Origin: a virus
Strand: one strand, 5' to 3'
DNA: 51,730 nucleotides
IMG/VR virus record: IMGVR_UViG_3300017727_001923
Location: 97,406-149,135 of that record
The position numbers and the translations under genes are program-made. The first letter of the stretch is position 1. Each line of letters opens with the position of its first letter. A model generated the notes under the pieces. The model searched no databases. It had not been told where the DNA came from and worked only from the letters and a program-made list of their open reading frames with translations. Positions 9,363 to 47,165 of the stretch are shown one piece after another.

Positions 9363-11189
9363 ATGGCAACAACAATAAAATCGACATCGTTAGATTTTGA
9401 TGCAATCAAAAACAATCTAAAAACTTTTCTCGCAGAAAAAAATGAGTTTTCAGACTTTAATTTTGAAGCGTCTGGATTGTCAAACATCCTAGATGTTCTT
9501 GCATACAACACACACTACAATGGTTTAACTGCTAACTTTGCATTGAACGAATCTTTTCTTGGTACTGCACAATTACGTAGTTCATTGGTATCTCTTTCAG
9601 AAGGTATAGGATATATTCCAGATTCTAAAACATCTTCTCAAGCAATTATTAAGATGTCTGTAAATTTAAGTGGTGTTTCTGGTCGTACTGCAACCATTCA
9701 AATACCTAGTGGTTTTAAATTCAATTCAACCGTTGATACTACAGAATATGTGTTTCAAACTCTAGAAGATTTAACTGCAAGTGATAATGGTGAAGGTCTG
9801 TATATATTTAAAGATGCGTCTGGTAATGAAAACATTAAAGTATTCGAAGGAACAGAAAGAGTAAAAACTTTCCTTATAACAAGAAAAGAAGAAAATGCAG
9901 TTTATATTATTCCAGATGCAAATATGGATATTGATACTGCGGTGGTTCGTGTCTATGAAACGCCTGGCGCTTCTGCATTCGCAACATATACAAACTTACT
10001 AAAAGCAACAACAATTAACATTGCATCAACATTGTTTATTCTAAAAGAATCACCTAATGGATTCTTTGAACTAACTTTTGGTAATGGAACTACTTTAGGT
10101 AGAGCCCCAGATGCGGGTAATAAAGTTGTTGTGACATATCTTGCCTCAAGTGGTGCTGAATCAGATACCGCTAAAGTATTCGAACCACAATCAACAATAT
10201 CAGTTGCGGGTGGTAACTACTCTGTGGTTGTTAGTACTGTTGCAAATGCAGTTGGTGGTGGTGAGAAAGAAAGTATTGAATCCATTCGTAAGACTGCACC
10301 TTTTCAGTATGCAACTCAGAACCGAATGGTAACTGCGGTTGATTACTCTACCCTAGTATTAAGAAACTTTTCCACATTAATCAAAGATATAAAATCATTT
10401 GGTGGTGAAGATGCACTTGACCCTAAGTTTGGGACAATCTTTATGTCAGTATTATTTAATGCAGATGTAGATTCAGTAACAGAAGACGTAACAAAACAAT
10501 CTATTATAGACCTTTCGAATCAATTATCAGTAGCGTCCTTTAGTTTAGAGTTTATTGACCCAGTAAAAACTTTTATTGAGACAGAAGTATTCTTCCAATT
10601 TAATCCTAGCTTGACTACACTTTCTAGAAATACAATTCAAGATAATGTCAACACAACGATTAGTGATTACTTTACTGATAACACAGGTAAATTTGGACAA
10701 TCATTTAGACGTTCAAATCTATTAACTTTGATAGATGACGTAAGTCCCTCAATCTTATCATCTCGTGCAACAGTTAGAATGCAGAGAAGGTTCTCACCTA
10801 CATTAACTAAGATTCAAGACCATACATTAAGATATGCTGCTAATATTTCTGAAACCGATGATGTAAATTATATCATTACTTCAAATGCGTTTCAATATAA
10901 AAATAAGACATGTATCATTAGAAACAAACTAAACACTAATAAACTAGAAGTATTTAATCAGAATGACCGTATTGTTATAGTAGATAACGTTGGTTCATTT
11001 ACTAAGGACACTATTAGTATAGTAGGATTACAAATAGATAATTTTGTTGGTTCAGAATCATTTATTAAAGTAAGTGCAGTCGCAGCTAATGAAAGTGCAA
11101 TTACTCCATTCAGAGAAGATATTATTGAACATGATAAGAGTCAATCGTTTAGTCGTATCGTAGATGTTGACACTGGAGTCACTACGTAA
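9363..11189 (+). CDS. gp6: Baseplate wedge subunit gp6
   Basis: LDFDAIKNNLKTFL..EFSDFNFEASGLSNILDVLAYNTHY..NESFL.TAQLRSS, FELTFGNG, ESIESIR..AP...QNRMVTAVDY. Confidence 0.92.
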   Translation: MATTIKSTSLDFDAIKNNLKTFLAEKNEFSDFNFEASGLSNILDVLAYNTHYNGLTANFALNESFLGTAQLRSSLVSLSEGIGYIPDSKTSSQAIIKMSVNLSGVSGRTATIQIPSGFKFNSTVDTTEYVFQTLEDLTASDNGEGLYIFKDASGNENIKVFEGTERVKTFLITRKEENAVYIIPDANMDIDTAVVRVYETPGASAFATYTNLLKATTINIASTLFILKESPNGFFELTFGNGTTLGRAPDAGNKVVVTYLASSGAESDTAKVFEPQSTISVAGGNYSVVVSTVANAVGGGEKESIESIRKTAPFQYATQNRMVTAVDYSTLVLRNFSTLIKDIKSFGGEDALDPKFGTIFMSVLFNADVDSVTEDVTKQSIIDLSNQLSVASFSLEFIDPVKTFIETEVFFQFNPSLTTLSRNTIQDNVNTTISDYFTDNTGKFGQSFRRSNLLTLIDDVSPSILSSRATVRMQRRFSPTLTKIQDHTLRYAANISETDDVNYIITSNAFQYKNKTCIIRNKLNTNKLEVFNQNDRIVIVDNVGSFTKDTISIVGLQIDNFVGSESFIKVSAVAANESAITPFREDIIEHDKSQSFSRIVDVDTGVTT

Positions 11190-12202
11190 TGGCAATAAAC
11201 CATCTACATGGCAAGAACGATACTCTGATTGATTTAAATAGGAGAGATATTACCTTTCCTAAAAATCAAATCCAAGAGGTTCTTCCTGAGTTCTTTAGAG
11301 GTACATATCCAAAACTCATAAGTCTTTTGGAGGAGTACTATCATTTTGAGACGGGGTCTGAGTCTCCTTCTCGTTTGATTAGTGAGTTGTTCCTTAACCG
11401 TGATATTACTCAGAATGATATAGAACTTTTGTCCTATATCGAAGATGAACTTTTATTGGGTCAATCTTTCTTTGAAGGATTTGCAGATAAAAGAGCTGCA
11501 GCAAAGTATTCAAATACATTATATCGTTCAAAAGGAACATTGTATTCAATACAACAATTCTTTAGAACATTCTTTTCCATTGACCCAGACGTAATCTATA
11601 CTAAGAAAAATATATTTAAGGTTGGGGAAGAGGATTCTAAGATTGGTTTTAACTCTCAGAAGTTTATTACCGATAACAAATTATACCAGACTTTTGCACT
11701 ACTTGTCAAGTCTGAAATTGCAGAAACAGAATGGAAAGAACCATATAAGTTGTTCGTCCATCCTGCTGGCATGTTTGTTGGTAGTGAAGTGCAAATTGTA
11801 TCTGTGGGAACAGATGAAATTACCGCTCCATTAGTTCAACTTGAACCACCACCACCTATTACTATTGAAAATACAGGGTCGTTCAATGTGTTACCAACAC
11901 TAGATTTAACTGCACTTGTTGATGACCTATATAGTGATTCAGATGGTATGTTAAGTAGAATTAATGCAGAACTTACTGATATCAGAGGGTTCAGACCAAA
12001 TACTATACAGACTATTGAAAATCAGTATTCATCATTAAGAGAAGCACAAACTGCAACATCTCCAACATTTGATGATTCTGACCAGTTTGAAACAAATGGT
12101 ATGGATTTATCAAATCATTTCCATTGGGAAACGATTGACCAAGAGAAACATATTTTTTATAGTGCAGATAGTGACCAATACCTAAAAAGTTTTACATTAT
12201 AG
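11189..12202 (+). CDS. Baseplate wedge protein (short gp7-like)
   Basis: LPEFFRGTYPKLI.LLEEYY, LYRSKGT.YSI..FFR.FF, DNKLYQTF, LFVHPAGM..G; follows gp6. Confidence 0.65.
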   Translation: MAINHLHGKNDTLIDLNRRDITFPKNQIQEVLPEFFRGTYPKLISLLEEYYHFETGSESPSRLISELFLNRDITQNDIELLSYIEDELLLGQSFFEGFADKRAAAKYSNTLYRSKGTLYSIQQFFRTFFSIDPDVIYTKKNIFKVGEEDSKIGFNSQKFITDNKLYQTFALLVKSEIAETEWKEPYKLFVHPAGMFVGSEVQIVSVGTDEITAPLVQLEPPPPITIENTGSFNVLPTLDLTALVDDLYSDSDGMLSRINAELTDIRGFRPNTIQTIENQYSSLREAQTATSPTFDDSDQFETNGMDLSNHFHWETIDQEKHIFYSADSDQYLKSFTL

Positions 12203-12213
12203 TGTAAAAGACT

Positions 12214-12221
12214 TATAAATA
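12214..12221 (+). promoter_or_regulatory. Late promoter TATAAATA
   Basis: Exact consensus, intergenic before 12244. Confidence 0.75.
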
Positions 12222-12243: not shown

Positions 12244-13269
12244 ATGGCGAAACAAACACTAAACAGAGGAACTACAGCAAACGATGGTACAGGTGATACC
12301 TTACGTACTGCTGCTCAGAAAATAAATGAGAACTTTACAGAACTCTACACCTCTATTGGTGGAGATTCTGCTACTGCAAACGTAAAACTTGCAGCGGGGG
12401 GTGCAATCTTTGAAGGATTGGCAGTGAATGCCCACCAGACTATAGTTTCTCCAGTTGAACCAACACAAGATAATAACGTCTATATTCCAGATGACAGTGG
12501 AACATTAATATTAGACTCTTGTTCTCAGACATTATCTAACAAGACTATTCTTGTTCCGACAATGACAACACCTAAGATTCGAGATGCGAATGCAAGTCAT
12601 ACGTACAATGTAACCGTAGGTGATATAAGTGCAAATCGTAATATTGCGTTACCAGTCCTACAGAGTAATGATACATTTGTATTTGCAAATGCAACACAAA
12701 CGTTACTCAACAAAACTATTGGTGGATTGACAGTTAACAATCCTAAGTTTGGTGGTATCTCAGGCGGGTCTTTACTAGTAGATAGTGCAGACAACGAATA
12801 TTTAAAATTTGTAAAGACCGCAAGTGCAGTTAACTTTGTTACTATGTCAAACAGTGCCACAGGTAACAGTCCATCTATTGATGTAGACGGTGGTGACGCT
12901 AACATTAGTCTTGAACTTGCTGCAAAAGGTACTGGTGCGGTTGAAATTAAAAACAAACTTGTTCTTGAAAAAGGAACAGATGTTGCATCAACAACTGCTA
13001 TTGATTTAAACGAACCATTAACAGTATTTAATTCTGGTTCACAAATCCTTCCAACTATCGGAGATGGAACAATTCAAGGGGAAGTAAAATACTTCAGTAA
13101 CGTTGGTGCGGGTGAAGCAAGACTTACTGTAGGTAATACTTCAAATATCCATGGTGTAAGTAATAATGGCCATATCTCTTTCGGAGAAGGTGACGGATGT
13201 ATACTAGTATGGAACTCAACTAAAAGCAAATGGTTTTTCGTGTCAAATAATGGCACAACAATAGGGTAA
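12244..13269 (+). CDS. Baseplate/tail-fibre connector with gp9/gp10-type N-terminus
   Basis: MAKQTLNRGTTANDGTGDTLRTAAQKINENFTELY is the gp9/gp10 N-terminal motif; QTLxNKT fibre repeats. Confidence 0.7.
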   Translation: MAKQTLNRGTTANDGTGDTLRTAAQKINENFTELYTSIGGDSATANVKLAAGGAIFEGLAVNAHQTIVSPVEPTQDNNVYIPDDSGTLILDSCSQTLSNKTILVPTMTTPKIRDANASHTYNVTVGDISANRNIALPVLQSNDTFVFANATQTLLNKTIGGLTVNNPKFGGISGGSLLVDSADNEYLKFVKTASAVNFVTMSNSATGNSPSIDVDGGDANISLELAAKGTGAVEIKNKLVLEKGTDVASTTAIDLNEPLTVFNSGSQILPTIGDGTIQGEVKYFSNVGAGEARLTVGNTSNIHGVSNNGHISFGEGDGCILVWNSTKSKWFFVSNNGTTIG

Positions 13270-13274: not shown

Positions 13275-14633
13275 ATGGCGATTATAACTCAAGATTTAAA
13301 GAAACAAGTATTAAAGGATATCAAATCAGATTTTGATTCCGCAAGTGAAAATTACTTTGCAGTAATAGGTCGCTCTGAAGATTGGAACGATTCTGACGTT
13401 GCACCAACTGTAATAAGTTCTGCAAGAGAAGAAAGAAACTTCCGTCTTGGAATACAATCTGCAAAAAACATTATTGATTTATCCTTTGTTGTTCCCAGAT
13501 ATAACTGGTCTTCTGGTGCAATTTATTCTGCATATGACGATGCGTCAGTAGGATATCCTGCTCAGTCATACTATGTTATGAATGACAATAACCAAGTATA
13601 CATGTGTATTCAACAATCTAGAAATGCGGCAGGACAAGCACAGACATCAACTGTTCAACCTACAGGTAATACAACGGGTGTTGCATTTGATACCGCAGAC
13701 GGTTACATTTGGAAATTCTTATACTCTATCAGTGCTTTAGACGCAAACAAATACATCTCTGCAAACTATTTACCAATTAAATTACAGGGTGCAACTGACT
13801 CAGATTCACCCGCTGCTGACGTTGAACAACTTGCAGTTCAGAATGCGGCAATTATAGGACAAATTACAGGTTATCAGGTTGATTCGGGTGGTAGTGGATA
13901 TTCAAGCACACCAACAGTCAACGTAACAGGTAACGGAACAAAGGCAAAAGCAAACGCAACAATTTCTGGTGGACAAGTAGTTAAAGTAGAACTTATCGAT
14001 AGTTCTGGTGCATACACATTAGGTTCAGGATATGACTATGCAGATGTTACTATAACGGGTGGTGGAGCTCCAACTAAACCAGCCGCAGTTAGAGCAGTTA
14101 TTAGTACTCCAATAGGACTTGGGGGAGACCCAAGAGATGACCTTCGTGCTACCTCAATTATGTTTAACGCAAAACCATCTGGTGCAGAAGGAAATGACTT
14201 TATTATTGGTAATGACTTCCGTCAAGTTGGTTTAATTAGAAATTTAAAAGATAGTGCGGGTACAGTAGACTTCACTGCCTCTACAGGTATTGGTCTAAAG
14301 AAACTAGTATTATCAAGTGTAACTCAAGGGTTTACCGCAGATAACCAGATATTAGGTTCAACTTCTGGAATCAAAGCATTGATTGATAAAGTAGACTCTT
14401 CTAATATATGGTATCACCAAACCGAAGAGACTGGTTTCGGTAATTTTGGTTCAGGTGAGAACATATCAGAAACAAATGGTAATGGTGCGGGAGTTCTAAA
14501 CGGTTCTTTCCATCCATATGTAAACCCAGAAATTGACACTTTCTCTGGAGAAGTACTCTACATAGATAACCGTGCAGCGGTTACTCGTAGTGCTGACCAG
14601 ACTGAAGATATTAAAATCGTAATCCAAATTTAA
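13275..14633 (+). CDS. gp8: Baseplate wedge subunit gp8-like
   Basis: VVPRYNWSSG..Y, YYVMN..QVY.CI, TADGYIWKFLY, NDFRQVGL, SGEVLYIDNR....R..DQTEDIKIVIQ. Confidence 0.8.
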   Translation: MAIITQDLKKQVLKDIKSDFDSASENYFAVIGRSEDWNDSDVAPTVISSAREERNFRLGIQSAKNIIDLSFVVPRYNWSSGAIYSAYDDASVGYPAQSYYVMNDNNQVYMCIQQSRNAAGQAQTSTVQPTGNTTGVAFDTADGYIWKFLYSISALDANKYISANYLPIKLQGATDSDSPAADVEQLAVQNAAIIGQITGYQVDSGGSGYSSTPTVNVTGNGTKAKANATISGGQVVKVELIDSSGAYTLGSGYDYADVTITGGGAPTKPAAVRAVISTPIGLGGDPRDDLRATSIMFNAKPSGAEGNDFIIGNDFRQVGLIRNLKDSAGTVDFTASTGIGLKKLVLSSVTQGFTADNQILGSTSGIKALIDKVDSSNIWYHQTEETGFGNFGSGENISETNGNGAGVLNGSFHPYVNPEIDTFSGEVLYIDNRAAVTRSADQTEDIKIVIQI

Positions 14634-14642: not shown

Positions 14643-17600
14643 ATGCCAAAGACATTTACATCTAACGTATTCCAATCAACCTATAAGGATGATTTTAAGG
14701 ACAGTGATAATTATCATCGTGTCCTTTTTAACAGTGGTAGAGCGGTTCAAGCACGTGAACTTACTCAACTACAAACAATCATTCAAGAGGAAATCGGGAG
14801 ATTTGGTCGGAACGTCTTTAAAGACGGTGCTGCCGTAAATCCAGGCGGCCCTCACGTCAATAGTGATTATGAATTTATTAAACTAGATACTTCAGTAAGA
14901 ACTTTACCAGACGATACTTCTGTTTTAATAGGACTTGAGTTCACACATGCCGCAACAAGTACTGCTGCAAGAGTTCTAGAGGTCGTGACTGCTACAGGTT
15001 CAGACCCAGCAACACTATATGTTCAATACACAAACACCTCTGGTGGTGACGTTGGAACAAACCCAGTTCGTATGCAATCGGGTGTAGATATCACAAGTGG
15101 TAGTTTTACATTTACAACACAATCAACAAACACTATTGCAAACCCTGCTGTAGGACGTGGTTGTCAAGTATCAAATGCTGCGGGTGATTTCTTTACTCGT
15201 GGTCATTTTGTATTCGCTAAACCTCAATCACTTATTATATCAAAATATACAAGATATCCTACTAAAGTTATTGGTTTTAAAGTAACAGAAGATATTATTA
15301 CTGTTGCGGATACTAATGAATTGTATGATAATCAGGGTGCAAATCCTAACCTATCTTCGCCTGGCGCTGATAGATACCGAATTAAACTTACTTTAACAAC
15401 AAAAGATGACGTTGCCTCAGATGAAAACTTTGTCTTCTATTGTGATATTGTTGATGGTAATGTAGTTGACCAAGTAACTGGTGCAGATAATTACAATGCA
15501 CCTAATACACTTGTTGCACAAAGAACAAAAGAAGAGAGTGGAGATTATATTGCAAAAGACTTCACTGTTGATTTCAGTGACTCAGCGACTAATCTAGTCG
15601 CATCTGTATCAGATGGTGTTGCATATGTAAACGGACATCGTGGTGCAACAGAAAAACCTACACCTATTACTATTCCAAAACCAAGAACTGATGTAACTTT
15701 AGAGAATGAAGTAACTGGTATTAGTTATGGTCAATTTGTCTTATGTAGTGAACTAAAGGGCGACATTGGTTCATTGTTTAAGACAGTTAATCTATCAACA
15801 TCTACTACTAATCCTGCTGCAAGTATTACAGGTACAGCAAGAGTTCGTTTTGTAGAAAAGAGTGGTGTTAATTTTAAAGTCTATCTATTTGATATCAAGA
15901 TGAATAGTGGACAGTCTTTCCGAAATATTAAAACACTTGGTACTAGTACAACTAATAGAGCAATCCCTGTTTTTGAATCTAGTAAAGCAGTGATTAAGGA
16001 TGCAACTAAAGTAAACTTAGTATATCCTCTTCCTAATCCAAGACCAAGAGCAATTACAGACGTTGACTTTGAAGTTCAAAGAGTTTCTGCTACGATTTCT
16101 AATTCTTCAAGTTCATTCTCTATGCCTAACTTGACTGTGACTGGTGAAACCTATACCAATACAAGTGATTGGATTGTTATTAATGCATCTACTGGTGCTG
16201 TACAAACTGGTGCAACTTTTGGTACTTCTGGTACTACCTCTATGACTGTTAGTAATGTAGCATCTGCTAATGCTATCGTATATCATAAAATTAACAAAGC
16301 ATCCCCAGTAGTTAGACCAAAGACATTAACCGATGCAACTGCAACCGCAACATTATCAACCGATTCTTTAACTGGTGCAAAATATCTAGATTTAGGTAAA
16401 ACTGATGTCTATAGTGTACAATCAATTAGACTAACTAATTCTGGTGGTACAGATATCTCTCATCAATTTACTGTTGATGATGGTCAACGAGCAGGATTCT
16501 ATGGTAATGGTCGATTAGTATTAAATGGTGGAGAGACTCAAAACGGAACAGTTTACTGTGCATTTAAACATTTTGTTCATGGTAATGGAGATTACTTCTC
16601 AGTTAACTCTTACGAAGGTAAGGTTGATTATGACAAGATACCCGCATTCAAAGTCGGGCCTAGAACATCCGTAAACTTACGTGACGTAATTGATTTCCGT
16701 TCTGCGGTAAACTCTAGTAATGTATTTACTACTTCATCACAAAATGAAATCCCTGCTAATGGTGATATCTTCCAAGGTGACGTAACATATTATGTCCCTC
16801 GTTCAGATAAAATCGTAGTTACCGAACAAGGTGAAGTTAAAAATATTTTAGGTGAAGCAGGATTTTCTTCTCAGATTCCCGCAACCCCATCAAATACTCT
16901 AGGTCTTTTTGAACTAGAACATAACGCATATGGTCTAAATGACTCTGACGTAGTTGTAACTCCTCTCAAAGCGAAAGGATTTACAATGAAAGATATCTCT
17001 GAACTAGAGAATAGAATTGATAAGTTAGAAGAAGTAACAACTTTAAGTATGTTAGAACTTGATACATCTTCACTCTTAGTTCTTGATTCTGCTGGAAACT
17101 CTAGAATGAAATCAGGTTTCTTCGTAGATAACTTTGCAAATAGAAGTTTCTCAGACGCAGAAAACTCAGAATATCGTGCTGCTATTGACCCAACTAAAGG
17201 TTTACTTTCATGTGCAACCTTTGAAGATAACGTTGGACTTGTATATGACAGTGCCGCATCATCAAACACTATTCTTAAAGGTGATACGATATTCCTTAAT
17301 TATACACATGTTGAATCAATAAGTCAACCAGTAATTTCTGGAACAGAGAACGTTAACCCATTCGCAGTTATTACTGGAGAAGGAAATCTTACTCTATCTC
17401 CAGCTTCAGATGAATGGTTTCAAACAGCATACAAACCCGCAAATGTAATTAACAAAACTGCGGAAGAACAACTAGGTGACCTAAACGAAGGTAATCTTGC
17501 AGTAGGTACTGCACAACAACGTGGATTCGCTGGCGGTAGTGGTGCATGGATGTGGTCTGGAGCGCCTTTTATTCCATTAATAGGATTCGGTGAATTCGGT

Positions 17601-19841
17601 ATTGGTGGTGGCGGTGGTGGTATCGGCAACCTCTTTGGAGGATGGAGAGGAGCGGGTCAGTGGAACTGGTCTGGTCTAAACACCCAAAGAAGTTCAAACG
17701 GTATAAACCGAACTGGTGTGTCTACAACAAACGATGGTACATTTACTAGTAGAACTTCAAGTTTTAGTCAAAATGTAGTTGTTGGTAATAGAACAGTTCG
17801 TAAGATTGTTGGTGATAAAACTGTATCATTAACATTCCTTCCTTTCATTCGTTCTCGTGAGGTATCTTTCCGTGCAGAAGGTTTAAGACCTAACACTAGA
17901 TACTTCCCATTCTTTGATGGTACAGATGTTGCAACTTTCTGTAAAGAAAAAGCATTCCAAAGACATGCAAGCGGAACGTTCCTAAGTGGTAAAGAAAATA
18001 GATTAGCTACTACTCACCCAGAGGGTTCTTCGAATTTAATATCTAACTCGAATGGTGAAATTGAAGGTTCATTCTTTATTCCGTCAAGTGAAACAAATCG
18101 TTTCCGTGCGGGAACAAGAGAATTTAAACTACTTGATATTAGTAAGAATGATGATGACGCTGCTTTATCACATGCATCAAATAACTATGTTGCTCAAGGT
18201 ACATTGGATACTAGACAAGAGACTATTACATCTACTCGTATTACTCAGAAGATAACTCGTAGATGGACAGAGACTACACGTGTCCGTAATCGTGACCCTC
18301 TTGCACAATCATTCACAGTAACAAAACCATCTGGAATGTTTGTAACTAAGGTTCAGACTTATTTTCAAAGCAAGGATACAAGTATTCCTGTTGAATTACA
18401 GATTCGTCCTATGGTAAATGGCGCTCCATCTTCTACAGAGATTATTGGTAATGCGTCTAAGTTCTTGAACCCAAGTGCGGTAAATCTTCCTGCTTCTCAA
18501 ACACAAGCTGCGGTCTTAAATGCACCCACTACATTTGAGTTTGATGAACCAATCTTCTTGAATCCAGAAACGGATTATTGTATTGTTCTTCTTGCAGAAT
18601 CAATTGATTATAATGCTTATGTCGCAGAGACTTATGCATTTGAACTTGGTTCTACAGAGAAACGTATTTCACGTCAACCATCTATGGGGTCATTATTTAA
18701 ATCTCAGAATGGTAAGACATGGGAGCCAGACCAAACAAAAGACCTTGCATTTAAAATCTTCACTGCTGACTTTGATACTGCGGGTGGTTATGCAGTGTTT
18801 GAAAACGCTGCTCTTGAAAAAGAATCAATTTCAAGTAATCCATTCTTTACAACATCATCCGATGCGACAGTTACTATGTTATTCCCGAACCACGGTTATG
18901 ATGTAAGTGATACTATCACAATTTCAGGTGCTGTTGGTGGTAATGGATTGTCTGCGGGTAATATAAACGGTAACAGAACTGTTACTCACGCAGATGGATT
19001 TGGTATTAAGTTTGAAGCGGGTAGTAATGCAAATGCGGGTGGTAGAGTTGGTGGAGATGCAGTTAAGGCAGATAGACAGGTTCTATTCGATACTGTTGTT
19101 CCAGAATTTACAACATTACAACCCGATGACACAAATATAACATATAATGTTAAATTTACTTCTGGTAAATCATTTGCTTCTATTGGTCAAACAAGATATC
19201 AAAAAGATATTACATACTCTTCTGAGATTCGTATTGGAGATGAAAACTATTTCACAACTCCAAGACTTATTGCTAAGACTGCAAACGAGTCTGTTGAACT
19301 AGGTTCAGGGGTTAAGTCTGCAACATTTAAAGTTAACATGACAACAGTCCGTGGAGATGTTTCTCCATTGGTTGATGCACAAAGAGTATCACTCAAAACT
19401 ACAAACAATATTATTGATAATCAAGCAGCGGCTACTGCTGCGGGATTCAATGTTCCGTTGAACTATGTTGCAGAAACAACAGCGTTTGGTGGTTCATCAC
19501 TTGCAAAACACATGACTACAGTCGGTGTTCTTGAAGAACCCGCTGTTGGTTTAAAACTAATAATTGGTTGTCTAAGACCAGTTGGTTCAGACTTTGATTT
19601 ATATTGGAGAGTTGCACAAGATGGTGACAACATCTTTGATATAGATTGGACACTAGAATCACCAGAACAAACGATTGCTGCTGATGAAAGAAACTTCCGT
19701 GATTATCGTTTCCTAATTGGTGGAGACGGTGGAGATGTTGATGCATTCTCGCAATATCAATTTAAGATTGTAATGCGTACTAATAACTCTGCAAAAGTTC
19801 CTTTCTTCAAGGACTTACGTGCAATTGCAATGGCAACATAA
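14643..19841 (+). CDS. Large virion structural protein (DUF4815/VrlC-like)
   Basis: YKDDF..NYHRVLF.SGRAVQARELTQLQTI, PGADRYRI.L, RTKEESGDY, FTMKDI..LE.RI..LE, KSGFFVDNF, DPLAQSF, GSLFKSQNG.TW..Q..DL.F, F..FKIVM. Confidence 0.75.
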   Translation: MPKTFTSNVFQSTYKDDFKDSDNYHRVLFNSGRAVQARELTQLQTIIQEEIGRFGRNVFKDGAAVNPGGPHVNSDYEFIKLDTSVRTLPDDTSVLIGLEFTHAATSTAARVLEVVTATGSDPATLYVQYTNTSGGDVGTNPVRMQSGVDITSGSFTFTTQSTNTIANPAVGRGCQVSNAAGDFFTRGHFVFAKPQSLIISKYTRYPTKVIGFKVTEDIITVADTNELYDNQGANPNLSSPGADRYRIKLTLTTKDDVASDENFVFYCDIVDGNVVDQVTGADNYNAPNTLVAQRTKEESGDYIAKDFTVDFSDSATNLVASVSDGVAYVNGHRGATEKPTPITIPKPRTDVTLENEVTGISYGQFVLCSELKGDIGSLFKTVNLSTSTTNPAASITGTARVRFVEKSGVNFKVYLFDIKMNSGQSFRNIKTLGTSTTNRAIPVFESSKAVIKDATKVNLVYPLPNPRPRAITDVDFEVQRVSATISNSSSSFSMPNLTVTGETYTNTSDWIVINASTGAVQTGATFGTSGTTSMTVSNVASANAIVYHKINKASPVVRPKTLTDATATATLSTDSLTGAKYLDLGKTDVYSVQSIRLTNSGGTDISHQFTVDDGQRAGFYGNGRLVLNGGETQNGTVYCAFKHFVHGNGDYFSVNSYEGKVDYDKIPAFKVGPRTSVNLRDVIDFRSAVNSSNVFTTSSQNEIPANGDIFQGDVTYYVPRSDKIVVTEQGEVKNILGEAGFSSQIPATPSNTLGLFELEHNAYGLNDSDVVVTPLKAKGFTMKDISELENRIDKLEEVTTLSMLELDTSSLLVLDSAGNSRMKSGFFVDNFANRSFSDAENSEYRAAIDPTKGLLSCATFEDNVGLVYDSAASSNTILKGDTIFLNYTHVESISQPVISGTENVNPFAVITGEGNLTLSPASDEWFQTAYKPANVINKTAEEQLGDLNEGNLAVGTAQQRGFAGGSGAWMWSGAPFIPLIGFGEFGIGGGGGGIGNLFGGWRGAGQWNWSGLNTQRSSNGINRTGVSTTNDGTFTSRTSSFSQNVVVGNRTVRKIVGDKTVSLTFLPFIRSREVSFRAEGLRPNTRYFPFFDGTDVATFCKEKAFQRHASGTFLSGKENRLATTHPEGSSNLISNSNGEIEGSFFIPSSETNRFRAGTREFKLLDISKNDDDAALSHASNNYVAQGTLDTRQETITSTRITQKITRRWTETTRVRNRDPLAQSFTVTKPSGMFVTKVQTYFQSKDTSIPVELQIRPMVNGAPSSTEIIGNASKFLNPSAVNLPASQTQAAVLNAPTTFEFDEPIFLNPETDYCIVLLAESIDYNAYVAETYAFELGSTEKRISRQPSMGSLFKSQNGKTWEPDQTKDLAFKIFTADFDTAGGYAVFENAALEKESISSNPFFTTSSDATVTMLFPNHGYDVSDTITISGAVGGNGLSAGNINGNRTVTHADGFGIKFEAGSNANAGGRVGGDAVKADRQVLFDTVVPEFTTLQPDDTNITYNVKFTSGKSFASIGQTRYQKDITYSSEIRIGDENYFTTPRLIAKTANESVELGSGVKSATFKVNMTTVRGDVSPLVDAQRVSLKTTNNIIDNQAAATAAGFNVPLNYVAETTAFGGSSLAKHMTTVGVLEEPAVGLKLIIGCLRPVGSDFDLYWRVAQDGDNIFDIDWTLESPEQTIAADERNFRDYRFLIGGDGGDVDAFSQYQFKIVMRTNNSAKVPFFKDLRAIAMAT

Positions 19842-20047
19842 TGAAATCGTATGTTGCTATAGAAGGAAATTCATCTTTAGCAAGAGACCCAAATTCGGGG
19901 ACAATTGTTAATATAAATAAAGATGAGATAAGTAAAGCTCGTTTATTAAAAACGAAAAGAAAAGAACAAGAAAGAGAGTTTGATGATTTAAAGAATGAAG
20001 TAAGTGAAGTTAAAGAACTCCTTAACAAACTAATAGAGAAACTGTAA
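19841..20047 (+). CDS. Small coiled-coil protein
   Basis: 68 aa, translationally coupled on both sides; LARDPNSGTIVN plus C-terminal heptads. Confidence 0.7.
   Translation: MKSYVAIEGNSSLARDPNSGTIVNINKDEISKARLLKTKRKEQEREFDDLKNEVSEVKELLNKLIEKL
19912..19919 (+). promoter_or_regulatory. Possible internal late promoter TATAAATA
   Basis: Exact consensus inside the 68-aa ORF, upstream of the fibre island. Confidence 0.45.
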
Positions 20048-21552
20048 TGGCTACCGCAAAACCGACAATTACAACGATTAATGATACGTTCACTACGTTG
20101 GTTACTAATACCAACACTGTCTCATTAGACTTAGGTGCAACTGGTCGATTAAACACGAATCAGGACTCTAGTGCCGTTGCAGCTATTAATGAACTGGAAC
20201 TAGGTATTCGTGGTACTTCGAATGACTTAGTTGCAACTGATTTATCACAAGCAGGAATTACTGCAAATAACGTTGTGTCTGCACTAGTAGAACACGATGT
20301 AGATATGCATGGTTCTGGAGGTGGTAATGCCGCTTCTGATTTAACAACAAATGCAAATGATATTGTATCTGGTGTTAATGAACTAGAAGTTGCTATTCGT
20401 GGAACTGATAATGGACTAGTCGCTAATATCCTATCAACCACTGCAACTAACTTAGTTACTGGTATTGGTGAACTTGACTCTGATATTGGTGCAAGACCAC
20501 ACACAAATCTTACAACTGGTGCAAAGAATCTTACTGCTGCTATCAACGAACTTGAAGCAGACATATTTAACGCAGAGGGTGGAACTAAAAGAACTCTTGC
20601 GTCCCTTGGTACAACCGATAAAACTGGTATCGTTGATGCAATCAATGAACTAGAAACTGCAATCCGTGGTACTACAGCAAATTACACTATTAGTACTACT
20701 AGTAACGATTTAGTAGGTGCGGTAAACGAACTTGATACATTGCAAGGTAATGTTTCAATGGGAACAAGTGCATCTACTGTTACAGGTGCAATTAAAGAAC
20801 ATGATGATGAGTTAGGTACAATTACTGCTCTTGCAATGGGTACAACTGCATCTACAGTATCTACTGCGATTGCAGAACTAGAAGTAGAGATTGATACACT
20901 TAATACAAAAGTCGAACCCGCCCAAGCATTAACAACTACTGCAACTACATTATCAGATGCAGTAAATGAACTTGATGCACTACAGGGTGACAGTGCAATG
21001 GGTACAACTGCAACTACCGTTACAGGTGCGATTGCAGAACTAGAAACAGAGATTGACACACTCAATACCTTTGTTGAACCTACACAATCATTGACTACTA
21101 CTGCAACAACTGTTGCGGATGCAATCAACGAACACGATGCAGAGATTGGTGCTGCCTCTCTCAACACATCTGCTACCACATTACGTGGTGCAATCAATGA
21201 ACTACATACAGAGGTTGGTGCTGCAATTGGGGCAACTCATAACACAACCACTGGTAATATTGGTTCATCATTAAACTTACTAGATAGTGCAGTTGGTAAC
21301 CTTGATGGTTTAAATGCTACCGATGTTCCTGCTGCGGGTCATAATAACTTAGTATCCGCTATCAACGAAGTTGCTGCAAGAGTAACTGGACTTGATGCTT
21401 CTGGTGCTGAGGTTGATTCTAGAATCGGGTCGTTATCAAATCTACACGCTGCTTTCACAGGAACAGAAGATGACAGTATAGTGAATGCTATTAATGCATT
21501 AAGGGGTGATATTCCACTTATATTCGATGAGAATGGAACACAACTTAATTAA
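20047..21552 (+). CDS. Segmented coiled-coil fibre (fibritin/whisker-like by position and architecture)
   Basis: About 15 repeats of L/M-x-T-T-A-T/S-x-L/V-x-x-A-I-N-E-L; lies between the baseplate genes and gp13, like wac. Confidence 0.6.
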   Translation: MATAKPTITTINDTFTTLVTNTNTVSLDLGATGRLNTNQDSSAVAAINELELGIRGTSNDLVATDLSQAGITANNVVSALVEHDVDMHGSGGGNAASDLTTNANDIVSGVNELEVAIRGTDNGLVANILSTTATNLVTGIGELDSDIGARPHTNLTTGAKNLTAAINELEADIFNAEGGTKRTLASLGTTDKTGIVDAINELETAIRGTTANYTISTTSNDLVGAVNELDTLQGNVSMGTSASTVTGAIKEHDDELGTITALAMGTTASTVSTAIAELEVEIDTLNTKVEPAQALTTTATTLSDAVNELDALQGDSAMGTTATTVTGAIAELETEIDTLNTFVEPTQSLTTTATTVADAINEHDAEIGAASLNTSATTLRGAINELHTEVGAAIGATHNTTTGNIGSSLNLLDSAVGNLDGLNATDVPAAGHNNLVSAINEVAARVTGLDASGAEVDSRIGSLSNLHAAFTGTEDDSIVNAINALRGDIPLIFDENGTQLN

Positions 21553-24182: not shown

Positions 24183-24192
24183 ATAGGTTGAT

Positions 24193-29558: not shown

Positions 29559-29927
29559 ATGTTGACACCAAACTACGAAGATATTACAATTACACAAGGT
29601 GCAGATGTAGCGATAGAAATACATCTCATCAATGACAGCGACAGTGCATATGACCTTACCAATAGGTCTGTAGCATCTAAAATGAAAAGAAATTATACCG
29701 ATTCTGCGGGTGACCCAGATACGGTAACATTTAATGCGTCTATAATTTCCCCAGCAACTTCGGGGATTGTAAATCTCTCACTAACTAATACTCAAACAGA
29801 TGCGTTGAAGACTCGTGGACGTTATGTCTATGATGTAGAAATATCTTATGTCGATAGTGATTCCAACACAATAATCCAAAGAGTCCTCGAAGGTCAAGCA
29901 GAAGTAAGTCCTTCGGTCACTAAATAA
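29559..29927 (+). CDS. Small Ig/BppU-N-like virion structural (fibre adaptor) protein
   Basis: ITITQGAD, YDLT, G.VNLSLT..QT..L..GRYVYDVEI, RVLEG...VSPSVT. Confidence 0.65.
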   Translation: MLTPNYEDITITQGADVAIEIHLINDSDSAYDLTNRSVASKMKRNYTDSAGDPDTVTFNASIISPATSGIVNLSLTNTQTDALKTRGRYVYDVEISYVDSDSNTIIQRVLEGQAEVSPSVTK

Positions 29928-35188: not shown

Positions 35189-35203
35189 GGATAAATAACT
35201 AGT

Positions 35204-35992: not shown

Positions 35993-35996
35993 TTAG

Positions 35997-36866
35997 ATGG
36001 CAACGAACCCTTATTTTAAACAAGGTGTTAAGTCTGAACAATCAGTATATGAGGACATCATAATTGAAGCCCTCAAATTCTATGGACAGGACGTATATTA
36101 CCTTCCACGAGAAATCATCAACAAAGATAAAGTCTTTCTTGATGACGTACCGTCACGTTTTGGTAATGCATACAAGATTGAGATGTATATTGAGAACACC
36201 GAAGCGTTTGAAGGCGAGGGTGACCTATTTACTAAATTCGGTATCGAACTAAGAGACCAAGCAAACTTTGTTGTTTCAAGAAAAAGATGGAAGACTTTGG
36301 TTGGTTCTCGTTTAGAATCATTAAACTTCCGTCCTCGTGAAGGGGACTTAATCTATTTGACACTATCTCAATCTATATTTGAGATTCGTAGGGTAGAGAC
36401 CGAAACTCCATTCTATCAACTAGCAAATCTTCCTACATTCCGTATGCAATGTGAGTTGTTCGAGTATAATGATGAGGATATGGATACTGGGTTTGCTACA
36501 ATTGATAATATAGAAGCAGAAGCAGCATATCAAGTTGAATTAACACTGGACTCTGCGGCAGGATTCTCTATTGGAGAAACAGTTACTCAGGCATACGATA
36601 CGTATAACTTAACAGGTGAAGTTACTAGATGGAGTGACTCAGATGGTATCTTACGACTTGCACATGTTGGTGCATCCGATGGGAAGTTCCATCAATTTGG
36701 AACAGGGGTACAAGTAACTGGTGGTACGTCTCTTGCGAAAGCAACACCGACATTTGTTGATGAGTTGCAGGCAATACAAGCAGATGCACAAAATAGAATC
36801 TTTGATGACTTCGAAGCAGACTTCCTTGACTTCTCAGAGAGTAATCCATTCGGAGATATATCATAA
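35997..36866 (+). CDS. gp14: Neck protein gp14
   Basis: EQ..YEDIIIEALKFYGQDVYYLPR, TKFGIELRD, RPREGDLIY, PFYQL, CELFEY, DFSESNPFG. Confidence 0.9.
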   Translation: MATNPYFKQGVKSEQSVYEDIIIEALKFYGQDVYYLPREIINKDKVFLDDVPSRFGNAYKIEMYIENTEAFEGEGDLFTKFGIELRDQANFVVSRKRWKTLVGSRLESLNFRPREGDLIYLTLSQSIFEIRRVETETPFYQLANLPTFRMQCELFEYNDEDMDTGFATIDNIEAEAAYQVELTLDSAAGFSIGETVTQAYDTYNLTGEVTRWSDSDGILRLAHVGASDGKFHQFGTGVQVTGGTSLAKATPTFVDELQAIQADAQNRIFDDFEADFLDFSESNPFGDIS

Positions 36867-37645
36867 TGTTTGGTACATGGTTTTATCATAAAAGAGTAAG
36901 AACTGCGGTATCCGTATTCGGTTCTATGTTTAATAACATATACGTGTTGAGACATGATAGTACAGGAAAAACTATCTCTCAAGTAAAAGTACCATTGTCA
37001 TATGCACCTAAGAGAAATTTTATTGCACGTCTTGATGAGATGAAAGCGGGTGAAGATGGGGAACGTAGAGTTGCAATTAAACTACCTCGTATGTCTTTCG
37101 AGATTACGAGTATGAATTATGACGCACCTCGTCAATTACCTAAAACAAATAATGTATCTGCGGTTGTGTCTAATAGTGTTACTGCAAGACGTAAACTATA
37201 TACTTCGACACCATATAACATTGGATTCCAATTAAACATATATGCAAAATCACAGGATGATGCATTACAAATTGTAGAACAAGTTTTACCATACTTTGCA
37301 CCACAATATACCTTGACAATCAAACCATTTGCTGATATACCTACCTTGACCGAAGATGTTCCAGTAACACTTTCTGGTGTATCCTTTCAAGATGACTTCG
37401 AAGGTGCAGTTGAACAACGTAGGACAATTATATATAGTTTAGAGTTTGAAATGAAGATTGCTCTATACGGGCCAGACGCTAATAAAAGTATTATTCGTGA
37501 TGTGCGTAATAATTTATTTAATATGCAAGCAGGATTACAAGATAGTGACATGTATATAAAAACAATAAAAACTACACCGAATCCTACTAACGTAAGTGCA
37601 GATAGTGATTACGGATTTATTGAAACTGATTTGGATAGTGCATAA
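36866..37645 (+). CDS. gp15: Tail sheath stabiliser/terminator gp15
   Basis: FYHK..R.....FGSMFNNI, KVPLSYAPK, LPRMSFEI, QDDALQIVEQVLPYFAP, RRTIIYSL.F. Confidence 0.92.
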   Translation: MFGTWFYHKRVRTAVSVFGSMFNNIYVLRHDSTGKTISQVKVPLSYAPKRNFIARLDEMKAGEDGERRVAIKLPRMSFEITSMNYDAPRQLPKTNNVSAVVSNSVTARRKLYTSTPYNIGFQLNIYAKSQDDALQIVEQVLPYFAPQYTLTIKPFADIPTLTEDVPVTLSGVSFQDDFEGAVEQRRTIIYSLEFEMKIALYGPDANKSIIRDVRNNLFNMQAGLQDSDMYIKTIKTTPNPTNVSADSDYGFIETDLDSA

Positions 37646-39589: not shown

Positions 39590-39592
39590 ATG

Positions 39593-39600
39593 TATAAATA
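39593..39600 (+). promoter_or_regulatory. Late promoter TATAAATA (sheath/tube)
   Basis: Exact consensus, intergenic before gp18. Confidence 0.8.
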
Positions 39601-39662
39601 AAGGTAAGTGAATATAACCGTATTATGATAACTTATAATTAGAAAAACTAAAGGAAAGAATT

Positions 39663-41435
39663 ATGGCTCTTTTTACACCCTCTGCTTCTCCTGCTGTAAC
39701 AGTTAAAGAAATTGATTTAACGGGTGTTGTCCCGAACGTTCAAACTTCAACTGGTGCATTCGTGGGGAATTTCGGTTGGGGGCCAGTAGGCGTTGCTACA
39801 CTAGTTTCAGATGAATCTGGACTTGTTAGCACCTTCTCTGCACCAACTGACGATAATACGGTAGATTTCCATTCTGCTGCTTATTTTTTAAGGTATTCCA
39901 ACTCCATGTACGTAGTACGTGAACAGGATAGTGACGGCAAAAACTCCGTTGCGAACCATACCTCATTAGGTACATTAACTGCACAAACAGTTAACAACCT
40001 AGACGCATTCGAAGACTTATCAATTGATAGTTCTGACGGTGCTTTCATTGCCAAATATCCTGGCTCTATCGGTAACTCTCTGAAAATCTCCATCGTGGGA
40101 ACAGACAGTGCTAATGGTAGTTCAGTCAACTTTAATAGTTGGGCATACAAAGACGATTTTGACGGAGCGCCTGGCACTTCTTCTTTCGTATCTGCACTTG
40201 GTGGGTCAAATGACGAAATCCACGTTGCAGTTATTGATGAAGACGGTGAAATTTCGGGTACTGCGGGAACTGTCCTTGAAACATTCCCATACTTATCTGT
40301 TGCAAAGAACGCTAAAGCATCCGATGGTTCATCAAACTTCTTCAAAGAAGTATTGAAGATTCGTTCCAATTGGGTATATGCGGGAGACTTCCACTTATCT
40401 GGTGATTCAGATGGTGTGGATGATTTTGCACACTCAACTTGGGGTAACAATGCAACTACTGCTGGCGAAGACTTCAAAACTAATCAAAACTTCTCTAACA
40501 CACAAAGCACTTGGTCATTCAAAGCTGGTGTTACATCAAGTTCTTTAGGAACTGATGATATCCTTCGTGGATACGACAAGTTTGAAGACAAAGATAATAT
40601 CGAAGTAGACTTCCTTATCGCTCCAGAATCATTGTCAAACACCGCTGCTACTACAATCGTAAATGATTTAGTATCAATAGCGGGAACAACTAGGAAAGAT
40701 TGTGTTGCAGTTGCATCACCTTCTCGTAATGCTGTAGTTACTGTAGGCACCAACGTTGGTGTTCTTGCAAATAACAACACATACACGAAGTCTTCCTACT
40801 TGGTACAAGACAACAACTATCTGAAAGTATTTGACAAGTATAATGACAAATACATTAAGATTCCTGCCGCATCATCCACTGCGGGTCTCATGGCTGCAAC
40901 TGACTTAGTCGCTGCACCTTGGTTCTCCCCTGCTGGGTCAAGACGTGGTAGATATCAAGGAATCACAGATATCATATTATCTCCGACAAAAGCTGAAAGA
41001 GATGCATTATACAAGGCTGGTATCAACCCAATCGCAAATATTCCAGGCGAAGGCATTATGCTCTTCGGTGACAAAACTAACGAATCAAGACCTTCTGCAT
41101 TTGACAGAATTAATGTTCGTAGATTGTTCCTTGGAATTGAAAGAGCGATTGCAATAGCAGGACGTAATGTAATGTTTGAATTCAATGACGAGTTTACTCG
41201 TGCAGAGTTCGTAAACATTGTAGAACCGTTCTTACGTGAGATTCAAGGTCGAAGAGGTATCACGGATTTCCGTGTTGTCTGTGACGCAACGAATAACACG
41301 CCTGCTGTGGTTGACCGTAATGAATTTATCGCTTCTATCTTTATTAAACCCGCACGTTCTATTAACTTCGTAACATTGAATTTTGTTGCAGTTAGAACTG
41401 GTGTTGAGTTTGATGAAGTAGTTGGCACAGTATAA
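39663..41435 (+). CDS. gp18: Tail sheath protein gp18
   Basis: SPAVTVKEIDLT, GNFGWGP, AKYPG..GN, PWFSPAG..RG, RDALYKAGINP, FDRINVRRLF, IKPARSINFV.LNFVA. Confidence 0.95.
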   Translation: MALFTPSASPAVTVKEIDLTGVVPNVQTSTGAFVGNFGWGPVGVATLVSDESGLVSTFSAPTDDNTVDFHSAAYFLRYSNSMYVVREQDSDGKNSVANHTSLGTLTAQTVNNLDAFEDLSIDSSDGAFIAKYPGSIGNSLKISIVGTDSANGSSVNFNSWAYKDDFDGAPGTSSFVSALGGSNDEIHVAVIDEDGEISGTAGTVLETFPYLSVAKNAKASDGSSNFFKEVLKIRSNWVYAGDFHLSGDSDGVDDFAHSTWGNNATTAGEDFKTNQNFSNTQSTWSFKAGVTSSSLGTDDILRGYDKFEDKDNIEVDFLIAPESLSNTAATTIVNDLVSIAGTTRKDCVAVASPSRNAVVTVGTNVGVLANNNTYTKSSYLVQDNNYLKVFDKYNDKYIKIPAASSTAGLMAATDLVAAPWFSPAGSRRGRYQGITDIILSPTKAERDALYKAGINPIANIPGEGIMLFGDKTNESRPSAFDRINVRRLFLGIERAIAIAGRNVMFEFNDEFTRAEFVNIVEPFLREIQGRRGITDFRVVCDATNNTPAVVDRNEFIASIFIKPARSINFVTLNFVAVRTGVEFDEVVGTV

Positions 41436-44777: not shown

Positions 44778-44786
44778 GAGTCAATT

Positions 44787-45839: not shown

Positions 45840-45851
45840 AGGAAATATAAA

Positions 45852-47165
45852 ATGCAATCTTACGATAATTTAATCGAAAAGTGGGCTCCAGTTCTAAACG
45901 AAGAGTCTGCTGGCGTGATTACTGATAATCACAGACGTGCGGTAACTGCTGCAATTCTCGAAAACCAAGAAAAAGCAATCGCTGAAGAGCGTTCTGCTTC
46001 TGCGGGTTTCATGACAGAGAATGCTGCAAGTGGCGCTAACAACACTGGTTCAGTTAATAACTTTGACCCAGTATTAATCTCACTAGTACGTAGAGCAATG
46101 CCTAACCTCATCGCTTATGACGTATGTGGTGTACAACCTATGAATGGCCCTACTGGTCTTATCTTCGCTATGAAGAGCAGATACCAAGGTGGTTCTACTT
46201 CTAACCGTGAAGCACTATTCAACGAAGCTGAAACTCAGTTCTCTGGTGATAGTTCTGGTACTCACGATTCAGACAATGCGTCTGGTTGGAACGGAATTGA
46301 TTCATCTGGTGCTAGACTTTCTAACCTTGCTGCTGGCGGAATGCCAACTGCTGATGCAGAAGCATTGGGTAGAACTGGTGGTTCATCTTTCAACGAAATG
46401 GGTTTCACCATTGAAAGACAGACTGTAACTGCTAAGTCACGTGCGCTTAAAGCTGAATACACTTTAGAACTTGCACAAGACCTTAAAGCGATTCATGGTC
46501 TTGACGCAGAAACAGAATTGGCTAACATCCTCTCTACTGAAATCCTTGCGGAAATCAACAGAGAAGTTATCCGTACTGTTAACTCTCAAGCGAAAACTGG
46601 AGCTCAACAAGCTAACGTTACTGCAAAAGGTATCTTTAACATGAGTTCAGACGCTGACGGACGTTGGTCTGCTGAGAAGTTCAAAGGTCTTGGTGTACAA
46701 ATTGACCGTGAAGCAAACGTAATTGCAAAAGAAACAAGACGTGGAAAAGGTAACGTAGTTATCTGTTCTTCAGATGTTGCTACTGCACTTGCTGCTGCGG
46801 GTACTTTGGACTATAGTCCTGCTATCAACAACAACCTACAGGTTGACGATACTGGTAATACTTTTGCTGGTGTATTAAACGGACGTATCCGTGTATACAT
46901 CGACCCTTATGCTAACACTGATTATATCACTGTTGGTTATAAAGGACAGAACCCATATGACAGTGGTGTATTCTACTGCCCATACGTTCCGTTGCAAATG
47001 GTTAAAGCAGTTGGTGAAGAAGACTTCCAACCACGTATCGGGTTTAAAACTCGTTACGGAATGGCAAGTAACCCATTTGTTGGGTCTACACCTTCTGACG
47101 GTCTTGCTACTGCAAAGACTAACCAGTACTACAGAATTTTCAAGGTTACTAATATCTTGACATAA
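45852..47165 (+). CDS. gp23: Major capsid protein gp23
   Basis: KWAPVL, FDPVLISLVRRAMPNLIAYDVCGVQPM.GPTGLIFAM, AKSRALKAEYTLELAQDLKAIHGLDAE, YCPYVPLQM, FQPRIGFKTRYG. Confidence 0.97.
   Translation: MQSYDNLIEKWAPVLNEESAGVITDNHRRAVTAAILENQEKAIAEERSASAGFMTENAASGANNTGSVNNFDPVLISLVRRAMPNLIAYDVCGVQPMNGPTGLIFAMKSRYQGGSTSNREALFNEAETQFSGDSSGTHDSDNASGWNGIDSSGARLSNLAAGGMPTADAEALGRTGGSSFNEMGFTIERQTVTAKSRALKAEYTLELAQDLKAIHGLDAETELANILSTEILAEINREVIRTVNSQAKTGAQQANVTAKGIFNMSSDADGRWSAEKFKGLGVQIDREANVIAKETRRGKGNVVICSSDVATALAAAGTLDYSPAINNNLQVDDTGNTFAGVLNGRIRVYIDPYANTDYITVGYKGQNPYDSGVFYCPYVPLQMVKAVGEEDFQPRIGFKTRYGMASNPFVGSTPSDGLATAKTNQYYRIFKVTNILT

Follow-up and report, generated by a model that had tools for sequence, protein, structure and literature searches.

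The tripeptide Asp-Ser-Ala or Asp-Ser-Asp (DS[AD]) is strongly enriched in about 14 unrelated virion proteins of an uncultured marine T4-like myovirus, which carry it in parts that appear to be exposed. The phage is represented by a complete 149,135-bp IMG/VR record with direct terminal repeats (IMGVR_UViG_3300017727_001923, genome G000 below), and the DNA analysed here, called the window throughout, is its last 51.7 kb (51,730 nucleotides, positions 97,406 to 149,135 of the record). We observed the enrichment itself, how specific it is and how it is spread over proteins and clades, and, in structure models, the folds of two enzymes encoded among the fibre genes, one glycosyltransferase-like and one resembling 2-oxoglutarate (2OG) oxygenases. 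We tentatively read DS[AD] as a modification sequon, with glycosylation by the neighbouring transferase as the leading, unproven version, a reading to which we give somewhat less than an even chance.

Excess and specificity of the motif

D-S-[ADSG] was tallied in the translations of the 41 main open reading frames (ORFs) of the window, whose late block (1032-47165) encodes baseplate, fibre, neck, terminase, sheath, tube, portal and head proteins. The total was 77, where shuffling within proteins gave an expectation of about 30. The enrichment of D-S-x in virion proteins claimed by the initial annotation proved real, and its per-protein counts were all reproduced exactly; the motif class that it had drawn, D-S-[A/D/S/G], turned out to be too wide. 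Across the virion block (the 26 ORFs of 11189-47165, 11,844 amino acids), DSA was found 29 times (5.6 expected) and DSD 27 times (5.0 expected), whereas DSS was raised about twofold (12 against 6.5) and DSG stood at background (7 against 6.1). Among the other residues at the third position, Asn gave about the expected count, DSI, DSL, DSV and DSM were no higher than expectation with hydrophobic residues depleted, and both DSE (0 against 3.6) and DST (3 against 7.3) were depleted.

At position 1, Asp alone was enriched (DS[AD] 56 against 10.6, ES[AD] 5 against 7.5, NS[AD] 5 against 11.1), and at position 2 the same held for Ser, with DT[AD] found 3 times against 12.4 in the window and 135 times against 250 in the clade of the phage. 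When all tripeptides were scanned, DSA was present in 10 proteins (p = 1e-12) and DSD in 12 (p = 7e-12); the next among tripeptides present in at least eight proteins was FEG (p = 1e-5), seven orders of magnitude weaker. Higher scores were reached only by tandem-repeat words of two repeat proteins, A and B, each word occurring in two to four proteins. These strongest excesses (GNY, YAR, NYA, YTG and TGN) arise in the short-period repeats of the two proteins (21570-27600), and the same words dominate a 3,347-residue protein of phage C48C1 (coding sequence 31012-41055; GNY 86 against 4.6), so the repeat architecture is common to the clades of both phages.

The excess held after correction for composition, a check that the initial annotation had itself proposed. 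In addition to the within-protein shuffles, local shuffles in blocks of 10, 20 and 40 residues left DS[AD] at 56 against 10-11 (z = 14), or at 35 against 8 (z = 10) once the repeat-rich long fibre was removed. About 20 of the 27 hits of that 1,749-residue fibre lie within internal repeats and are hence not independent. Global or local composition as the cause is ruled out by the shuffles, and repeats as the sole cause are ruled out as well, the excess persisting without the fibre and being spread across 10-12 proteins. The order of the residues also matters: the five permutations of DSA were found 3-13 times each against 29 for DSA itself, and DDS and SDD were found 4 and 2 times against 27 for DSD. 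Ser codons within the motif were mixed (AGT, TCT, TCA and TCC), and all Asp and Ala codons were used. The mixture of TCN and AGY codons places selection at the level of the protein and, with the free use of Asp and Ala codons, rules out a motif at the level of DNA.

Distribution over virion proteins

The proteins that carry the motif are listed in Table 1 together with the genes of the enzyme cassette discussed below; the portal and gp5N have one DS[ADSG] each in addition. Three of the four sites of the major capsid protein gp23 fall in a 45-residue segment without an alignable counterpart in T4 gp23, which has about 90 residues there, and the fourth falls within the conserved core, at a place where T4 reads DAG. 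The sites of the sheath protein gp18 lie in or border a variable region that aligns poorly to T4 gp18 and that we take to be the outer sheath domains. Together, these placements suggest that the motif sits on exposed parts of the virion, as judged at the level of domains. They agree with the initial annotation, in which the motif-bearing proteins were the exposed ones, the gp18 and gp23 sites lying in variable segments that cannot be aligned to T4.

Table 1. Motif carriers and cassette genes of the window, with positions in the window and the number of DS[ADSG] sites
Feature	Position	Strand	Description
gp7-like/baseplate-periphery protein	11189..12202	+	337 amino acids; three DSD; PHROG baseplate wedge matches
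gp9-like baseplate-fibre connector	12244..13269	+	341 amino acids; three sites (DSA, DSG, DSA)
gp8-like baseplate wedge	13275..14633	+	452 amino acids; seven sites (1.3 expected); Pfam Phage-Gp8
Baseplate/fibre protein	14643..19841	+	1,732 amino acids; five DS[AD]; missing from the list of the initial annotation
Fibritin-like fibre	20047..21552	+	501 amino acids; four sites
Repeat protein A	21570..24182	+	Four sites, all in the N-terminal non-repeat part
Repeat protein B	24193..27600	+	Four sites, three N-terminal and one C-terminal
Lys/Glu-rich protein	27640..28092	+	150 amino acids; predicted coiled coil; first cassette gene; no motif
P0001	28073..28822	+	Candidate GT-A, GT8-like retaining-type glycosyltransferase (fold model); no motif
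P0002	28819..29487	+	2OG-oxygenase-like, prolyl-hydroxylase-like (fold model); no motif
LtfC-like adaptor	29559..29927	+	122 amino acids; four sites (0.4 expected); densest in the block
Long fibre	29939..35188	+	1,749 amino acids; 27 sites, mostly inside internal repeats
gp14 neck protein	35997..36866	+	Two sites
gp15 tail terminator	36866..37645	+	Three sites in the last 35 residues
gp18 sheath	39663..41435	+	Four sites, residues 89-248
gp23 major capsid protein	45852..47165	+	Four sites, three at residues 133-152 (46245-46310)

DS[ADSG] was absent from gp17, gp19, gp21, gp22, gp6 and a 595-residue protein of the window. The inner baseplate block (1032-11189; 3,225 amino acids) contains no DS[AD], and its DS dipeptides number 5 against 19 expected.

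Conservation in related phages

By gp23, the window phage is 71% identical to Phage C48C1 (Kyanoviridae) and 54-62% identical to cyanophages. Its own clade (the W clade) was sampled as 80 IMG/VR loci around gp15 with 67-89% identity, the C48C1-like sister clade (the C clade) as 80 loci, and cyanophage-like phages as another 80. Longer sequences were represented by a second W-clade genome (G001; CheckV-estimated 87% complete), a 160-kb C-clade genome (G004) and a cyanophage genome (G009).

The excess was reproduced across the W clade, where DSA was found 615 times against 116 (5.3-fold), DSD 590 times against 117 (5.0-fold) and DSS 260 times against 131. By orthologue, the enrichment was 14-fold in gp15, 12-fold in the adaptor, 9-fold in the fibre, 6-fold in gp14, 3.6-fold in gp18 and 3.4-fold in gp23. 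The C clade had DSA at 0.8-fold and DSD at 2.7-fold, the latter only in sheath and fibres, and in G004 the counts were 13 against 12 for DSA and 46 against 9 for DSD. Cyanophage-like loci stood at about 1.2-fold, and no excess was found in S-SSM4, S-PRM1 or a T4-like coliphage (about 1-fold). Specific to the W clade are the DSA excess and the sites in gp14 and gp15.

The same clade shows where the motif is missing. None was found clade-wide in gp16, gp17, gp19, gp20, gp21, gp22, P0001 or P0002, and gp13 had no more than expected. Among the non-virion proteins of G000, DS[AD] was found 7 times against 19 expected, a roughly twofold depletion, and those of G001 had about 11 against 19 once two fibre-region ORFs were set aside.

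Within the W clade, Asp and Ser are retained while position 3 toggles between Ala, Ser and Asp and position -1 is unconstrained. At the three sites of gp15, Asp and Ser are conserved in 94-99% of 81 relatives, against a mean column identity of 77%. Across the clade, the motif columns of gp18 comprise four that are fixed and 15 that are sporadic, a sign of turnover of the motif. The orthologous sites of C48C1 have mostly varied loop residues (DAG, NPE, QTD, NSL and others) where the window phage has DSx, and its gp8-like orthologue has no DS[AD] and DS at none of the seven aligned sites. It follows that many sites converged on one tripeptide in the W lineage.

The second gp15 site reads A/P-D-S-D-[YF]-G-F in all five cassette-bearing phages compared, A-D-D-D-F-G-F in S-SSM4 and EDW in a T4-like phage. 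With DDD in S-SSM4, the acidic patch is older than the Ser. At this site it is the Ser, not the acidic patch, that sets the cassette-bearing lineages apart.

Candidate enzymes of the fibre-region cassette

The order of 150-residue gene, transferase, oxygenase, LtfC-like adaptor, long fibre or fibres, gp13, gp14 and gp15 is kept in every relative examined. Neither P0001 nor P0002 had matches in Pfam, in PHROG or in a profile search against PDB sequences, so that folding alone identified them; for P0001, only language-model look-alikes carry PF03407 or PF01501. The families of both proteins are large and were found exclusively in marine viral metagenomes.

The structure of P0001 was predicted with 41 homologues. 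The model (predicted local distance difference test score, pLDDT, 93) adopts a GT-A nucleotide-sugar-binding fold, and the proposal of the initial annotation that the ORF at 28073-28822 encodes a glycosyltransferase is thereby strengthened, with a GT8-like enzyme predicted. Foldseek matched it to UGGT, LgtC and glycogenin (E = 2e-8). The best structural neighbour was glycogenin (Z 16.4, 197 residues aligned, root-mean-square deviation (rmsd) 3.6; VIA), followed by GlyE (Z 15.0), Skp1 alpha-galactosyltransferase (15.0) and LgtC (14.2), and at lower scores by PBCV-1 A64R (13.8), UGGT (13.5) and collagen glucosyltransferase (12.5). The D84-A-D86 (DxD) motif is invariant in the 41 homologues, as is H237.

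The model of P0002 (pLDDT 95) is a double-stranded beta-helix. Its nearest structures were PHD, Pseudomonas P4H, Dictyostelium PhyA and PBCV-1 vCPH (Z 9.2-9.6, 146-158 residues aligned), with TET (Z 8.2) and AspH (Z 8.0) below them; Foldseek gave a probability of 1.0 together with TM-scores of 0.3-0.4. H125-N126-N127 and H186 are invariant in 40 homologues, with Asn at the place of the Asp of the HxD/E...H iron-binding triad, a place assigned by motif spacing rather than by residue-level alignment. R194-x-T196, eight residues after H186, is invariant too and offers a candidate for the basic residue that binds the C5 carboxylate of 2OG. The initial annotation had offered Asp hydroxylation as one possible modification. 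The oxygenase-like fold at 28819-29487 is in keeping with this, but the model lies nearer to prolyl hydroxylases than to AspH (Z 9.6 against 8.0) and has HxN, so that, as far as the models go, Asp hydroxylation is without specific support. No Pro- or Lys-containing motif of comparable enrichment was found; PSA (9 against 2), to which fibre repeats contribute heavily (4 of the 9), was rejected as unconvincing when a Pro-containing target of P0002 was considered.

A paralogue of P0002 (34% identical) is encoded at G000:24382-25074, adjoining ThyX in a nucleotide-metabolism region, which makes a nucleic-acid instead of a protein substrate possible for the family. The ORF at 51075-51728 of the window, considered as a further paralogue, had no similarity to P0002.

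Co-occurrence of motif and candidate enzymes

The cassette was found in every W-clade record with enough DNA (contig L044 was too short to judge), in four of the five long C-clade records and in none of the five long cyanophage-like records, two of which are complete genomes. With all W-clade records carrying it, there is no contrast within that clade. The co-occurrence with the glycosyltransferase that the initial annotation had put forward as a check thus came out in part: an excess of DSD accompanies the cassette at the level of clades, but the C clade and one cassette-bearing contig depart from the pattern, as weighed below. The clade pattern is compatible with a sequon that widened from DSD to DSD plus DSA, and equally with no enzyme link at all, and the link of the cassette enzymes to the motif is unproven.

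Other enzymes share the narrower distribution of the DSA excess. Thirty-three genes are common to G000 and G001 and absent from both G004 and G009, and they include an 8-kb island (G000:71.3-79.2 kb). Among these W-clade-specific genes are a second GT8-like gene, a glutamine amidotransferase, a cupin, a sulfotransferase, a methyltransferase and a fusion of HAD and sugar-nucleotidyltransferase, as well as two B12-binding radical SAM enzymes, a 190-residue 2OG oxygenase and an AMP-binding-like protein. On the flanks of the island lie three GT25 genes, a further GT8-like gene and a radical SAM/SPASM gene.

In its full extent, this glycan-related island spans G000:69842-81402 around a core at 71323-79221, with the radical SAM/SPASM gene, the three GT25 genes and two GT8-like genes. 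The compared genomes of the sister clade and of cyanophages lack the core, and similar islands occur in S-PRM1 and S-CAM9. In G001, the relative of G000:71323-72114 (G001:71093-71880) is a GT8-like gene in three pieces, separated by one TGA and one TAA, which reflects either decay or an assembly error. As a correlate of the motif, the sugar island was rejected, S-PRM1 having a similar island and no excess; with the GT8-like gene of the clade interrupted in G001 as well, the island is no better a correlate than the cassette.

The two B12-binding radical SAM proteins (576 and 548 amino acids) are encoded at 3-503 of the window on the minus strand, continuing to G000:96178-97908, and at G000:946-2592. 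The 190-residue 2OG-Fe(II) oxygenase lies at G000:3080-3652 and the AMP-binding-like protein at G000:59655-60890. All of these are possible protein- or metabolite-tailoring enzymes.

Interpretation

We propose that DS[AD], with Ser tolerated at position 3, is a short linear motif that would have been gained at many independent surface loops and that the W lineage would avoid outside its exposed virion proteins. A trans-acting, phage-encoded enzyme would read the tripeptide in the cytoplasm and modify it, most likely by O-glycosylation of the Ser, and baseplate periphery, fibres, neck, sheath and capsid would thereby share one coat. The leading candidate for this enzyme would be the GT8-like P0001, encoded inside the late fibre operon beside the two most motif-dense proteins. 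Tripeptide specificity, convergent gain, restriction to exposed parts and mild avoidance elsewhere are what would be expected of the site of a trans-acting cytoplasmic enzyme, and the sugar-nucleotide and glycosyltransferase island elsewhere in the genome lends further support. The most specific form of the proposal is that the W clade writes a virion-wide coat (O-glycan or another adduct) on a D-S-[A/D] gained convergently on every exposed structural protein and purged from cytoplasmic ones, with a pair of a hitherto unclassified GT8-like transferase and the HxN protein as its reader and a widening from DSD in the C clade to DSD plus DSA as the enzyme diverged. All these elements together we consider rather unlikely.

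Several points weigh against a modification sequon. Modification of the motif, its chemistry and the responsible enzyme are all steps that we infer, and exposure of the sites is judged at the level of domains only. To our knowledge, no transferase reads D-S-[A/D]. Some of the nearest structural neighbours of P0001 lengthen a glycan already in place or have Tyr as their target, while the model of P0002 points to chemistry on Pro (or on Lys, Asp or Asn) rather than on Ser; its invariant Asn, moreover, replaces the canonical Asp of HxD, and with the iron-binding residue exchanged the activity of the protein is uncertain. The C clade has the cassette and shows neither a DSA excess nor an excess in gp14 and gp15, contig L090 shows no excess (6 against 3.9) in spite of its cassette, and the co-occurrence of motif and cassette amounts to about two independent contrasts. 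Conservation of Ser within the motif is modestly above that of other Ser residues (0.90 against 0.73, p = 0.08). Finally, the sequence around the motif, with Ile, Leu, Val, Phe and Tyr enriched at -1 and Gly and Asn at +2/+3, would also fit a strand-turn element.

This last point leads to the alternative that the motif is structural, namely a strand-to-turn element, an Asx/ST cap or an acidic loop that would bind cations in seawater, in beta-rich surface domains, spread by descent, repeat amplification and a lineage-specific preference. We regard it as a serious contender, if on the whole doubtful. Asp, Ser, Asp and Gly suit the preferences of type I turns, and DSDG was found five times. The fibre accounts for about 20 hits as repeat copies, the acidic residues of the gp15 site predate its Ser, and the S-clade gp14 keeps one DSD without any cassette. 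A structural preference would, however, be expected to raise DT[AD], NS[AD], DSN, DSG and DSE too, all of which are at or below about expectation, and the same folds in other T4-like phages show no excess, so that a generic turn or cap propensity is a poor fit. The orthologous loops of C48C1 work with varied residues, and the depletion in non-virion proteins is not explained by a purely structural preference.

Alternatively, the sequon might be read by an enzyme, or through a chemistry, other than that of the cassette at 28073-29487, the candidates being, among the W-clade-specific genes, those for the second GT8-like transferase, the sulfotransferase, the methyltransferase, the two B12-binding radical SAM enzymes, the 190-residue 2OG oxygenase and the AMP-binding-like protein. 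The W-clade-specific genes include the 8-kb island, and the DSA excess is W-clade-specific likewise. The clade-specific GT8-like gene is, however, interrupted by stops in G001, which keeps the full excess, S-PRM1 combines a similar sugar island with no DS[AD] excess, and cyanophage sugar islands are usually attributed to changes of the host surface. We know of no D-S-x specificity among the candidate enzymes, and this explanation strikes us as improbable.

A direct binding function, in which the repeated exposed triplets would hold a ligand from the host surface or the environment, for instance divalent cations, polysaccharide or particles, and so make the surface chemistry of the virion uniform, is in our view quite remote. 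An acidic motif limited to the virion surface of a marine phage would suit it, but it leaves the cytoplasmic avoidance unexplained, as well as the equal use of Ala, which is uncharged, and Asp, which is charged, at position 3. Although the motif was picked in the initial annotation after the data had been seen and fibre repeats inflate the count, an artefact of composition, internal repeats or multiple testing has next to no probability, being already refuted by local shuffles with or without the fibre (z 10-14), tripeptide scans (p of about 1e-12 per tripeptide, which holds after correction for 8000 tripeptides), the concurring permutation control and replication in 80 related loci and in G001.

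Relation to known systems

The O-glycosylation sequon of Bacteroidota, to which the initial annotation had pointed, differs from DS[AD] in its use of Thr, in its hydrophobic +1 residues and in acting outside the cytoplasm (PMC8729774). That sequon is (D)(S/T)(A/I/L/V/M/T), extended at the last position to S/G/F/C (PMC8550257, PMC8729774), and the system modifies exported proteins only and is inactive in the cytoplasm (PMC8729774). The likeness lies in a tripeptide with Asp before Ser and in the Ala enriched here at +1, a position at which the Bacteroidota sequon allows Ala, Ser and Gly (PMC8550257, PMC8729774). In the window phage, by contrast, Thr is depleted at position 2, Ile, Leu, Val, Met and Thr are depleted at +1, and at +1 the excess of Asp equals that of Ala. 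The virions of T4-like phages assemble in the cytoplasm, where the Bacteroidota system does not act. No machinery homologous to Bacteroidota O-glycosylation was identified in this analysis.

In mycobacteriophages Che8 and Rita, phage-encoded glycosyltransferases reportedly glycosylate major virion proteins and so form a shield (Freeman et al. 2023, as cited in PMC11256854). These phages are unrelated to the window phage in family and host, and they offer a precedent for phage-encoded virion glycosylation, with glycans demonstrated there and proposed here. We know of no tripeptide sequon spread over about 14 proteins that has been described for phage virions.

PBCV-1 A64R is a virus-encoded cytoplasmic GT-A enzyme that acts on the major capsid protein. 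Its structure resembles that of P0001 (Z 13.8 over 182 aligned residues, rmsd 3.4); the two share no sequence similarity. Unlike the window phage, PBCV-1 is a eukaryotic virus, and its glycans are N-linked at atypical Asn sites. The pairing of a 2OG hydroxylase with a GT-A enzyme on one protein has parallels in the Skp1 system (PhyA with the GT8-like Gat1) and in the collagen hydroxylysine system, whose members are close in structure to the cassette proteins (PhyA to P0002, Z 9.4; Skp1 alpha-galactosyltransferase and collagen glucosyltransferase to P0001, Z 15.0 and 12.5). The targets in those systems are Pro or Lys, not the Ser of D-S-x, and P0002 has HxN in place of HxD.

If the sequon is real, it would be the first virion modification code of tailed ocean phages that can be read from sequence, and modified virion surfaces could be predicted straight from metagenomes. 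Of the many orphan sets of glycosyltransferases in marine myoviruses, one would gain a function, and the sequon would also bear on how virions avoid sticking, proteolysis or recognition in seawater. Even as a structural motif, a lineage-specific tripeptide that is found in the exposed parts of so many unrelated virion proteins would be useful for marking the surface, and its convergent evolution would call for an explanation.

Further observations on the genome

The closest classified relatives of G000 are Kyanoviridae, yet the genome (G+C 33-42%) lacks psbA, and no tRNA genes were found in the window; the host is probably not a cyanobacterium. A literature search on 'C48C1' returned nothing relevant. 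At G000:28228-33032, the phage has three clade-specific genes that are unusual for a phage, encoding a CsgG-like protein (related to curli secretion channels), a protein with a FecR domain and a fusion of a CHASE2 sensor with an adenylate/guanylate cyclase domain.

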